Source: Nitrososphaeria archaeon (GTDB taxonomy: Archaea > Thermoproteota > Nitrososphaeria > JACIWG01). From it: a stretch of 64,000 nt of DNA. Under the pieces are notes generated by a model, which was given only the letters and a program-made list of their open reading frames with translations, had not been told where the DNA came from and made no database searches. The first letter of the stretch is position 1. Every line of letters starts with the position of its first letter. This document shows, piece by piece, positions 8,893-63,897 of the stretch. The DNA is taken from contig CAVVXT010000019.1 of NCBI GenBank assembly GCA_963752255.1, positions 544,635-608,634 on the forward strand, written 5' to 3'. The position numbers and the translations under genes were made by a program.

Positions 8893-9435
8893 GTGGTTAT
8901 GGGGCAGGAAACAAGACTTTCTGGAAAGTTAAAATTAAATCGTATTGTCATTGAAAATTTTGATGATGCCCAAGAACTTTACCAGAGTGGATTTGGAGAA
9001 AAGGAAAGGAAGAGTCTTGTGTTGAACCCCTATGAAGCGCTCTATCTTTGCAGCATTAATAGGGTTGACGTGATTGGAAAGAAGAAGATCATAAACTTTG
9101 AAAATTTAATAGGCATACTCTACAATAAAGATAAGGAAATTCTAACCAGATTTCTAGTCTATAGGGACCTGAGGAGCAGAGGTTTTATTGTCAAAGAAGG
9201 CTTCGGTTTCGGGGTTGACTTTAGGGTCTACGATAAAGGGGAATATGGTAAAAAGACAGCAAAATATGTCGTCTTCGTTTTAAATGAAGGAAATGATGTT
9301 AGATTTGAGAAGATCGTACAGGATGCTATCGATATTAAAAGGATGGGGAAGAAATCTATCATGGCAGTTATAGATAGAAGGGGAGAAGTGATATATTATC
9401 AGATATCTGAGGCGGTCTTTAATGCAGAAAGTTAG
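8893..9435 (+). CDS. endA: tRNA splicing endonuclease subunit (probably structural/beta subunit)
   Basis: EALYL, FLVYRDLRSRGF, FGVDFRVY motifs; the catalytic His expected after the Tyr is not seen. Confidence 0.85.
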   Translation: MVMGQETRLSGKLKLNRIVIENFDDAQELYQSGFGEKERKSLVLNPYEALYLCSINRVDVIGKKKIINFENLIGILYNKDKEILTRFLVYRDLRSRGFIVKEGFGFGVDFRVYDKGEYGKKTAKYVVFVLNEGNDVRFEKIVQDAIDIKRMGKKSIMAVIDRRGEVIYYQISEAVFNAES

Positions 9436-17192: not shown

Positions 17193-19416
17193 TCATTCTT
17201 TGTCGATGAACTCATCCGGTGTAGGTGGCGTTTCGCTTAGACCCTTCCTCTTCCTTATTGATACGATTAACTGCGGCAATAGACTTTGGGGAACTATATT
17301 CCATTCTTTGAAATGAGTATTCCACATAGCTTTCCCTGCCGTAGCTCCCCTCATAGCTTCACTAAGATCGAATGTTTCAGATGCAGGAATTACGCCCTCG
17401 ATTATCGTCAGAATACCCTTTTGTTGGACGTCAAGCATTCTTCCTCTTCTACCTGAAATAACACCTGCGATAGCACCTATAAGATCGCTGCTTCCTTTGA
17501 CTTCGATACCTAATATCGGTTCGAGAAGCGTTGGATTCGCTAGAAGCATTGCACCCAATATTGCACCTCTAGAAGCCGGTAGAAGCTGTGCATATGTTCT
17601 ATGTGCTGAATCCTCGTGAAATTCTGCGTGATGAAGTATAACTTTAATGCCTCTACACGCTTCCTGCGCTAAAGGACCATTCTCCATCACATCCGAAAAG
17701 CCAACCTTTATCGAATCTATTGACTCTTGCATGAATTGCACACCCTTAGTTGCGTCAACGAATAAGTTTCCTTTGTTATCAACTGAAACAACATTCCTCG
17801 CTTCATCTGCGTCCCAGCCGTGCTCTCTTAATATTTTGGCCACCGTCTTTTTATCAAGTTGTTCGTTAATTGTATTATTCCTGATTAATTCAATTATTTC
17901 GGGGGTAAGGGGTTCTACTTTCATGAAGATGCGGTTATGTTTATTAGGTGATTTGGACATGATTGGACCTGCTGAACTTCTGATTGTCTCACGATAGTTA
18001 ATCAAAGGTTCAGTCGTCACAATTTCGAGTCCTGCCTGTTGTATGAGAGTGGTTGCGATTTCAAGATGTAATACACCCATACCGGCCATCAGCATTTCTC
18101 CTGTTTCTTCATTGATCTTGACGACGAGGTTTGGGTCTTCGATAGAGATTCTTCTTAGGGTATCAATCAATTTAGGTAGATCACGCGGAAACTTTGGCTC
18201 AACAGCAATTGTGACAACAGGTTCGGAAACGTATTTTATCACCTCAAATGGTGTTACATCTTTGACTGAGGAAACCGTTTCTCCTGACCTGGCGGCGTCC
18301 AGTCCTAGCAGAGCAGGTATATTACCACAACCCATGAAACCTACGAGTTCTCTAAAAGGACCCATGAACATGTTAACCGATTGTATCCTCGCTTGAGTCT
18401 TAGCGTCGTGCAGGTATACTACATCACCATCATGAACTGTTCCAGAGAACAGCCTTCCAACGGCGACGACTCCGGCTTGAGGGTCAACTACAACGTTTGT
18501 AACCATCATTACGACTGGACCCTTTTCATCACAGTTAACCAACGATTGACCGATTTCAGAATTCGGGTCACCCTTCCATATTTTTGGAATACGATATCGT
18601 TGAGCGACGTGTGGAGGTGGGTGATGTTTAATAACCATTGAAAGAATGGCTTCGTGCAACGGAAAATTTTCCGAGAGAGTTTTCATGTCACCTTCTTCAT
18701 AAGCCTTGTAGATATCGCTGAATTTTACACTTTTCTTCTGAGTGGTCGTAAAGTTGAAGCCCCATCTGTCTTTTGCTGAACCAAAAGCGACGCTGCTATC
18801 TTGTATGCTAACCTTCCACTTATCTTTATATTCGGGCTCAGCATAAATATCAATCAGATTATTAAAATCGTTAACAATGTCCCCAAGCCAAGCCTGCATC
18901 TTTTCAGGTGAAAGCTTAAGTTCCTTGATTAACCGATCAATCTTATTAATATAAAGTACAGGACGAACCCTCTCTTCTAAAGCCTGCCTAGTAACGGTTT
19001 CAGTCTGCGTCATCACACCTTCAACTGCATCTGAAACTACAACAACACCATCGATCGCGCGCAAACTTCTCGTAACTCTACCGGTAAAGTCGATGTGACC
19101 AGGTGTATCAATAAGGTTAATAACATATGGAACGTTGTCTTGCTCATAGTAAAGTGTGACGTTTGCTGCTTTGATGGTCATCTGCCTTTGCTGTTCCAAG
19201 TCCATATAATCCAGAGCTAGCGCTTGCCCAGCGAGGGAAGGATTGAGCATACCGCATGCGGCGAGGAGGCTATCGCTCATCGTCGTTTTACCGTGGTCTA
19301 CGTGAGCAACAACGCCCAGATAATTCGGGCTAGAATTGTTATTTCTAGGCCTTTCGAATCTGGTCTTTGTTGCCTATAATCTTTAATGCTTCCGTTGTAG
19401 ACTTATATCTTGGCAT
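17193..19416 (-). CDS. fusA: Elongation factor EF-2, two exons (19416-19353 and 19321-17193), 730 aa when spliced
   Basis: MPRYKSTTEALKIIGNKDQIR in exon 1; N-LGVVAHVDHGKTT, DTPGH, NKID and the diphthamide loop HEDSAHR in exon 2. Confidence 0.95.
19322..19352 (-). other. 31-nt bulge-helix-bulge intron in EF-2 mRNA
   Basis: CCAGA-TTCG-AA^A-GGC...GCC-CGAA-TT^A-TCTGG; excision gives CGA AAT CTG GGC (R-N-L-G) in frame. Confidence 0.88.
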
Positions 19417-53460: not shown

Positions 53461-53993
53461 GTTCAAATGTTCAAACGTCTGTTCACCAAACAGCAAAAAA
53501 GTTTTTTGCTATATATAGAGGAACCTGCCTGTTTTCCTAAGGAATACTGGGGTTTATTGGGGGATCCGCTATAATAGGGACGGACGTTTTTCCTGTTTGG
53601 AGATCGGACTAAGGATTCTAAACAGGCTCAGATAATTAATTTATACGCTGAATGTAAAAGTTTTTAGAAAGAAGATCACAAAGAACTCTAAGTTAGCGAA
53701 TCCCTTTACAATCAAGGTTAGAGACGACAAGACAGCGGAGGAATACACGATCGAGACATAGATAGGTGGCTCAACCGCATATAGGGCGAAATTTTACTAA
53801 ACCTATTTAGCATAAATTGGAGCCTCCTTCAGTTAATATCATCATCAGTGATGTGCCAACATAAAGATTTGGTAAAGGTTATGCTTCAAATGGAAAGGAA
53901 GAACGCTTAAAATTCGAGCAGATTTGGGATTTTGGGCACAAGTTAACATCAAGTTTTTGGGGGTTTGTGCTCATGCCCAGAAACCGCTCAAAA

Positions 53994-63807: not shown

Positions 63808-63897
63808 GGCCTCCGTGGTGTAGTGGTAGCATAATGGCCTGTGGAGCCGTGGGCTCGGGTTCGACAAATTAAACGTTCGAAAATCCCGACGGAGGCC
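63808..63897 (+). tRNA. tRNA-His(GTG) with encoded G-1 and an 18-nt intron at 59/60 (63866-63883)
   Basis: GCCTCCG/CGGAGGC acceptor, ATGGC-CTGTGGA-GCCGT anticodon arm; T arm TCGGG-TTCG-AC^A-AAT...GTT-CGAA-AA^T-CCCGA is a canonical BHB. Confidence 0.93.

Follow-up and report, generated by a model that had tools for sequence, protein, structure and literature searches.

A pre-mRNA intron in cbf5 of Desulfurococcales and Sulfolobales is described in Yokobori 2009 (PMC2738675), and Watanabe 2002 and Yoshinari 2006 are cited in this connection. Among archaeal coding-region introns, splicing is confirmed only for cbf5 and introns have been predicted in other genes, according to the relevant sections of PMC2738675. 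A bulge-helix-bulge (BHB) intron in the 5' UTR of the Haloferax volcanii gene HVO_1309 is described in parts of Schwarz 2020 (PMC7714728), and excerpts of two further papers report non-canonical T-loop introns in archaeal tRNAs (PMC6379350, PMC3082918), the second of which deals with tRNA and rRNA introns. The BHB itself is defined, in the passages of PMC6379350 and PMC2738675 devoted to it, by two 3-nt bulges, each of which is cut after its second base. In the literature that we searched, with subscription journals outside its scope, we found neither a BHB intron in EF-2 of archaea nor splicing of a protein-coding intron in Bathyarchaeia. The main texts of two Nitrosocaldus genome papers (PMC5797428, PMC5817080) do not contain the terms intron, splicing, EF-2, elongation factor, frameshift or pseudogene, and a paper on EF-2 evolution (PMC6143161) mentions an intron solely in a reference.

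Here, we analysed a stretch of 64,000 nucleotides (the window) from a Nitrososphaeria archaeon of JACIWG01, which is the deepest-branching order of Nitrososphaeria according to a section of PMC10833072. The EF-2 gene in the window is interrupted by a short insert, and sequence comparison indicates that this insert is very probably a protein-spliced archaeal mRNA intron, which EndA would cut and RtcB would join, with the spliced message then being translated.

The interrupted EF-2 gene and its BHB motif

The EF-2 gene lies on the minus strand at 19416-17193 (Table 1). The initial annotation had noticed that the ORF track starts EF-2 past the P-loop, and had placed the true start codon at ATG 19416 in a frame that ends at TAG 19347-19345; all of its coordinates and strings hold. 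The start chosen by the ORF caller, at 19280, yields a protein of 695 aa without the P-loop. By translation we reproduced both the 23-aa peptide expected from the unspliced message and the single open frame of 730 aa that results from removing the 31 nt at 19352-19322. This insert follows codon 21, and exon 1 measures 64 nt, so that the cut separates the first base of codon Asn22 from the other two. When a 31-nt deletion was tried in 25 registers, the Arg-Asn-Leu-Gly junction arose only with 19352-19322 and 19351-19321, two registers that differ by a one-base slide and give an identical product.

Table 1. Coordinates of the EF-2 locus and of splicing-related genes within the window
Feature	Position	Strand	Basis or remark
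EF-2 exon 1, 21 codons and first base of Asn22	19353..19416	-	matches N-terminus of intronless EF-2 from other families
Exon-exon helix, 19363-19359 with 19320-19316	19316..19363	-	pair probabilities 0.93-1.0
Exon strand of the central helix (codons Ile20/Arg21), paired to 19327-19324	19355..19358	-	
5' bulge; predicted cut between 19353 and 19352	19352..19354	-	BHB definition
Predicted 31-nt BHB intron, site A	19322..19352	-	frame restoration, folding, comparison
Intron hairpin, variable among relatives, contains in-frame TAG 19347-19345	19328..19351	-	
Central helix, intron strand	19324..19327	-	
3' bulge; predicted cut between 19322 and 19321	19321..19323	-	
EF-2 exon 2, Asn22 via P-loop to stop codon	17193..19321	-	TIGR00490 match
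Splicing endonuclease, probable structural subunit, without His or Lys motif	8893..9435	+	PF01974
tRNA-His(GUG) with 18-nt T-loop intron at 63866-63883	63808..63897	+	missed by ARAGORN

Exon 2 matches the aEF-2 model TIGR00490 over profile positions 22-718 of 720 with 841.9 bits (cut-off 738.45), and the gene, scoring above this cut-off and present in single copy, has the properties of a canonical archaeal EF-2. A second intact EF-2 elsewhere in the genome, named in the initial annotation as part of a refuting condition, was not found by tblastn. Five other intron-bearing genomes, including one closed into a single contig, were tested and likewise have no second EF-2 gene (5/5). The genome holds no further copy of the intron sequence, the best other match being 12 nt long, and a promoter scan with bacterial models, run on this archaeal host, returned nothing relevant.

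The elements of the BHB described in the initial annotation were recovered at the break, namely the 5-bp exon-exon helix, the bulges, the hairpin and a 4-bp central helix between the exon end and the intron end, in which 4/4 pairs form in this genome. For the surrounding 71 nt the folding energy is -27.2 kcal/mol (z -4.71), a value equalled by 0/200 shuffles. The BHB is, however, not the minimum-energy structure: at -14.2 vs -14.6 it lies 0.4 kcal/mol higher than the minimum-energy fold, and it is present in the centroid but absent from the MFE structure, with central-helix pair probabilities of 0.27-0.57 at 37 C. Taken by itself, the motif is no more frequent than its mirror image, with 55 strict BHB motifs in the genome vs 51 mirror-geometry controls (raw counts 7936 vs 8006). 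A BHB of such quality is not above chance by itself, and structure alone proves nothing. Chance is exceeded in two respects: conserved EF-2 sequence is restored by the predicted cuts, and relatives share the insert. Once spliced, the EF-2 junction is predicted to form a 5-bp stem with a 7-nt loop, resembling a tRNA T-arm.

We also scanned the other broken genes of this genome for BHB motifs, as the initial annotation had suggested. A relaxed scan found 20 motifs at broken frames vs 19 mirror controls, and in the strict and relaxed scans, which are blind to in-frame introns without a stop, a conserved motif was restored only at EF-2, as judged by eye with seven candidates translated. The genes cbf5, glyA, RNase HII and rtcB are uninterrupted in this genome. 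Two candidates, C19:142507 (+) in a presumably radical SAM-like gene and C14:190787 (+) in what we take to be a dehydrogenase-like gene, were rejected as introns, both being single-base frame breaks. A 43-nt hairpin with BHB-like ends at C12:6918-6960 (+) (L232) coincides with a frame break in an unknown gene and is either an intron or a single-base error; 0/5 kin matched it, and neither of its two database matches was informative.

Distribution and shared features of the insert in relatives

The alignment of EF-2 from relatives for presence, absence and compensatory changes, likewise put forward in the initial annotation, revealed 44 carriers, intact kin and compensatory pairs. The position of the insert, site A, is interrupted in 44 genomes from 13 families, 25 of them Nitrososphaeria and 19 outside the class. 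An EF-2 match was obtained for 9/10 genomes of the window's order, and all nine, which were found through a protein search and not through the motif, have an insert of 26-32 nt at the identical base; the tenth genome (76% complete) gave no EF-2 match. Site-A inserts of 26-34 nt are also present in 11 metagenome contigs, the ends of which match by construction because the contigs were found by pattern. Where motif-bearing records have names, they are Nitrososphaeria MAGs, and one bears the accession prefix JACIWG01. Across 16 distinct order-level sequences, pairing holds in 95.3% of cells, and covariation is seen at the third intron pair, which is U-A in 9 and C-G in 7.

Within the class, a search with an intact EF-2 N-terminus matched 389/401 genomes; the best 150 of these matches were considered, and 35 low-scoring genomes were examined further. 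The site-A pattern occurs once each in 22/401 genomes, vs 1 for a reversed control, and three more class carriers, with inserts too long for the pattern, were recovered among the low-scoring genomes. The resulting 25 carriers fall into families f1 (9), f11 (10/10), f14 (4/4), f19 (1) and f20 (1), and the pattern was absent from the two largest families of the class (0/224 and 0/78 genomes). Genomes of f11 and f14 possess amoA, and their EF-2 frames are deposited as Ca. Nitrosocaldus, Nitrosocaldaceae and Ca. Nitrosomirales; Nitrosocaldaceae, which includes cultivated ammonia oxidisers, has the site-A insert in 10/10 sampled genomes. As a separate observation, the PolD large-subunit N-terminal family was not found in 4/4 of the f11/f14 genomes tested (G115, G165, G245, G173) but was found in an f12 control.

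Outside the class, 19/341 genomes from eight families, three of which are named Bathyarchaeia, have a site-A insert. The pattern without a pairing requirement matched 60 of 401 phylum genomes, mostly intact genes by chance, and the phylum count is a lower bound, as the pattern misses inserts >42 nt and divergent exons. Confinement of the intron to the window's order was overturned by the carriers in other families and outside the class. Most relatives lack the intron.

This distribution bears on the simplest alternative, that the insert is an assembly error or the mark of a dead gene. Single-base frame breaks do occur elsewhere in this genome, but the initial annotation had already argued that a 31-nt insert is unlike an indel error, and 44 genomes and 11 metagenome contigs, as independent assemblies, have the same site with different insert sequences, on which grounds an assembly artefact is excluded; a dead gene is contradicted by the lack of a second EF-2. 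We regard the probability of this alternative as negligible.

The 44 site-A inserts are 16-63 nt long and comprise 42 distinct sequences, as expected of introns with a variable interior and no ribozyme core. Insert length modulo three is 0, 1 and 2 in 11, 24 and 9 genomes, respectively, and the unspliced frame meets a stop within 2-6 codons in 44/44, including 11/11 inserts with a length that is a multiple of three; in 37/44 this stop lies two codons past the cut. The predicted BHB cuts restore the frame and conserved residues in 44/44. The central helix is paired in 24/24 Nitrososphaeria genes parsed by translation alone, a parse that left out G391 (parsed later), G027, G045 and G118, and pairing in 44/44 is partly by construction, since the 19 outside-class cuts were chosen by requiring a paired central helix. 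Its second pair is U-A in 33 and C-G in 11 genes; at the second intron pair, 38 genes have G-C and 6 have A-U. Family f28 contains both forms, and a compensatory central-helix change is seen in 11/44. The first two intron pairs and the first exon-exon pair are kept in 44/44, and the 3' bulge ends in A in all 44. The exon-exon helix comprises 5 bp in this genome and some kin; many relatives have 1-3 contiguous pairs, with the second pair unpaired in 19/44, so that their endonuclease would have to accept relaxed motifs. The carriers are related, not independent, and these counts are descriptive and not probabilities.

The flanking exons carry a signal of their own. In the first 300 codons of 22 intron-bearing genes, 146 residues are invariant and degenerate, and only three of them, at codons 20, 21 and 22, are always encoded by one and the same codon. 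Arg21 is encoded by CGA in 43/44 intron-bearing vs 2/32 intact genes, and CGA makes up 7.4% of Arg codons in this genome. Judging from this codon usage, the exon sequence at the junction is under RNA-level selection. A requirement of the exon helix for Leu after Asn22 was rejected, since Phe or Ile stands there in other families with the intron and Leu in the intact genes of f13.

Translational recoding, in which the ribosome would shift frame or hop over the hairpin without RNA splicing, would draw on the fact that the hairpin and the stop codon follow a rare CGA codon and that, in this genome, shifting by +1 would suffice to enter the frame of the P-loop. Yet the inserts fall into all three frame classes and every in-frame insert has a stop, so that no single shift works; the offsets vary where a programmed frameshift would have one constant offset, and the take-off and landing codons that a bypass would use mismatch. 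Furthermore, the conserved features are those read by the endonuclease, with compensatory pairing between exon and insert, and recoding is thus very improbable.

Deposited forms of EF-2 have 695 aa (beginning after the P-loop), 705 aa (with a non-standard start just before the P-loop) or a start inside the insert, and among 154 related database proteins 103 begin past the P-loop and others within the intron. Such records could be taken to reflect translation from a downstream start, producing an EF-2 without its first 25-35 residues and leaving exon 1 as a remnant or leader peptide. We consider this extremely improbable: in 36/44 genes the exon-2 frame offers no ATG, GTG or TTG ahead of the P-loop, a 695-aa protein would be without the GTP-binding loop, and exon 1 has kept the conservation of EF-2 protein sequence. 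Exactly the junction predicted by splicing is present in three natural proteins of 730 aa (P0030, P0031, P0196), which have 97-98% identity to intron-bearing clades, are nested within them, and may be cDNA products or precise intron losses, originating from intronless DNA.

A second position in EF-2, site B, is interrupted in five genomes by an insert of 28-32 nt that splits the codon of the P-loop lysine behind its first base. These carriers belong to f15 (2/2), f16 (2/4) and f13 (1/11) (L149-L153: G374, G284, G318, G332, G393), and the f13 insert differs in sequence from the other site-B inserts. BHB cuts would yield 730 aa in 5/5; three of the five have a fully paired central helix and two have a single mismatch in it, and the exon helix is weak. 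The site-B pattern was found in 0/401 phylum genomes, a sample that includes none of the five known carriers and so no positive control. Separately, an intein is located directly after the P-loop lysine of EF-2 in L004/L047 (G008), L101, L102, L109-L111, P0183 and P0184, and G008, a genome of the window's order, has the site-A intron and the EF-2 intein together.

Splicing enzymes and the proposed dependence of EF-2 on them

The genome encodes two PF01974 splicing endonuclease genes, one of which, on contig C12, has the Tyr, His and Lys motifs; the other is the probable structural subunit listed in Table 1. This gene pair fits an (alpha-beta)2-type endonuclease. A full-length RtcB (1-426 of 426) is encoded elsewhere on C19. 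As an aside, the gene for the probable structural subunit is situated ~8 kb from the EF-2 gene.

The tRNA-His gene in the window has an intron in its T-loop, at a position that we take to be named 59/60, and its central helix is the same as that of the EF-2 intron. A tRNA-His T-loop intron is present in 7/8 genomes of the order in which the gene was found (the eighth was not parsed), measuring 17-22 nt in the relatives. A tRNA gene with a CAU anticodon and a T-loop intron was seen on C14 at about 53700-53810 (+). In addition, many isolated tRNA 3' ends occur on C1, C3, C4, C5, C6, C7, C10 and C19, some of them adjoining a common short sequence, as left by integrating elements. An (alpha-beta)2 endonuclease is described as able to cut relaxed motifs in a passage of PMC6379350.

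Folding and covariation show that the EF-2 pre-mRNA forms a BHB at its 5' end. We propose that the two-subunit endonuclease would cut after the second base of each bulge, following the established rule. RtcB would ligate the exons, so that the Asn22 codon is made whole again and the frame runs on into the P-loop, and the spliced message would then be translated to EF-2. Since the unspliced message stops after 23 codons and there is a single EF-2 gene, the cell's only EF-2 would depend on the tRNA-splicing enzymes. Cells of this archaeon and of its intron-bearing relatives most likely must splice EF-2 mRNA to make the protein, from which it follows that translation capacity would be tied to tRNA-splicing activity, as a dependency. 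That EndA and ligase splicing is needed for EF-2 had been claimed in the initial annotation, and is strongly supported by site conservation, length classes, compensatory changes, junction codons, single copy and the enzymes.

Splicing could in addition be regulatory, the intron having been selected to tie EF-2 output to endonuclease and ligase capacity. The 5'-terminal position in a gene essential for translation, the early stop common to all 44 genes and the invasion of a second EF-2 site in five genomes are in keeping with this addition, but the motif was found in neither of the class's two largest families, intact genes are nested within intron-bearing ones, and the early stop may be inherited along with the helix; on balance we find such a role doubtful. 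The proposed intron would be kept mainly because only precise deletion can remove an insert from an essential gene.

Origin of the proposed intron and comparison with known systems

In a quick tree of 91 rows, which left out rows <450 aa, rows with inteins or ambiguous residues, and G332, site A needs six changes, three of them forced by well-supported branches, and site B needs three. The site-A intron would be old and common to Nitrososphaeria and Bathyarchaeia lineages, with several losses or gains. One old origin with losses is favoured, because the inserts share a G-G/G-A start, a C-C/U-C end and the early stop beyond what the pairing rule imposes. It is conceivable, if unlikely, that the T-arm-like hairpin of codons 19-23 led the endonuclease and ligase to reverse-splice a T-loop intron into EF-2, with repeated gain or transfer and retention as a checkpoint on translocase supply. 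If true, EF-2 mRNA would be a recurrent landing site for tRNA-type introns, and the supply of the ribosomal translocase would depend on tRNA-splicing capacity. No donor intron was identified, because the tRNA-His interior (17-22 nt, A/U-rich) is unlike the G-G...C-C stem of the EF-2 intron.

An EF-2 intron located at one site in two classes, and at another in three further families, would mean that many archaea cannot translate without pre-mRNA splicing and that such splicing has a greater age and a broader range than supposed. It would correct the annotation of EF-2, a standard phylogenetic marker affected by truncated database entries, and provide a dataset for how archaeal mRNA introns arise and disappear. 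The carriers include cultivated ammonia oxidisers, making the proposal directly testable.

Among known systems, the T-loop tRNA introns resemble the EF-2 intron in that its central helix is that of tRNA-His here and in six relatives, and in its T-arm-like spliced junction. HVO_1309, as portrayed in the sections of PMC7714728 concerned, is likewise an mRNA substrate of the splicing endonuclease, a role predicted for EF-2; unlike in EF-2, its intron is in an untranslated region and the reading frame is unbroken. The cbf5 intron, as far as the relevant sections of PMC2738675 describe it, is also a short coding-region intron (16-44 nt in cbf5, 16-63 nt in EF-2) in phase 1, with BHB ends, a variable interior and an often relaxed motif, and shares with it a two-subunit endonuclease, lineage-specific absence and a history of being overlooked by gene callers. 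In contrast to cbf5, EF-2 is a universal single-copy translation GTPase, and its introns are found in other lineages, at two sites and with unrelated sequence; splicing has been shown for cbf5, as those sections state, and for EF-2 it is deduced from sequence comparison. The cbf5 intron family is marked by insertion in the catalytic Asp codon of cbf5, and here the host gene is EF-2; cbf5 itself is uninterrupted in 10/10 genomes of the window's order, which lack the cbf5 intron. Taken together, these comparisons suggest that the EF-2 intron is a further case of what is known from cbf5, with a wider range.
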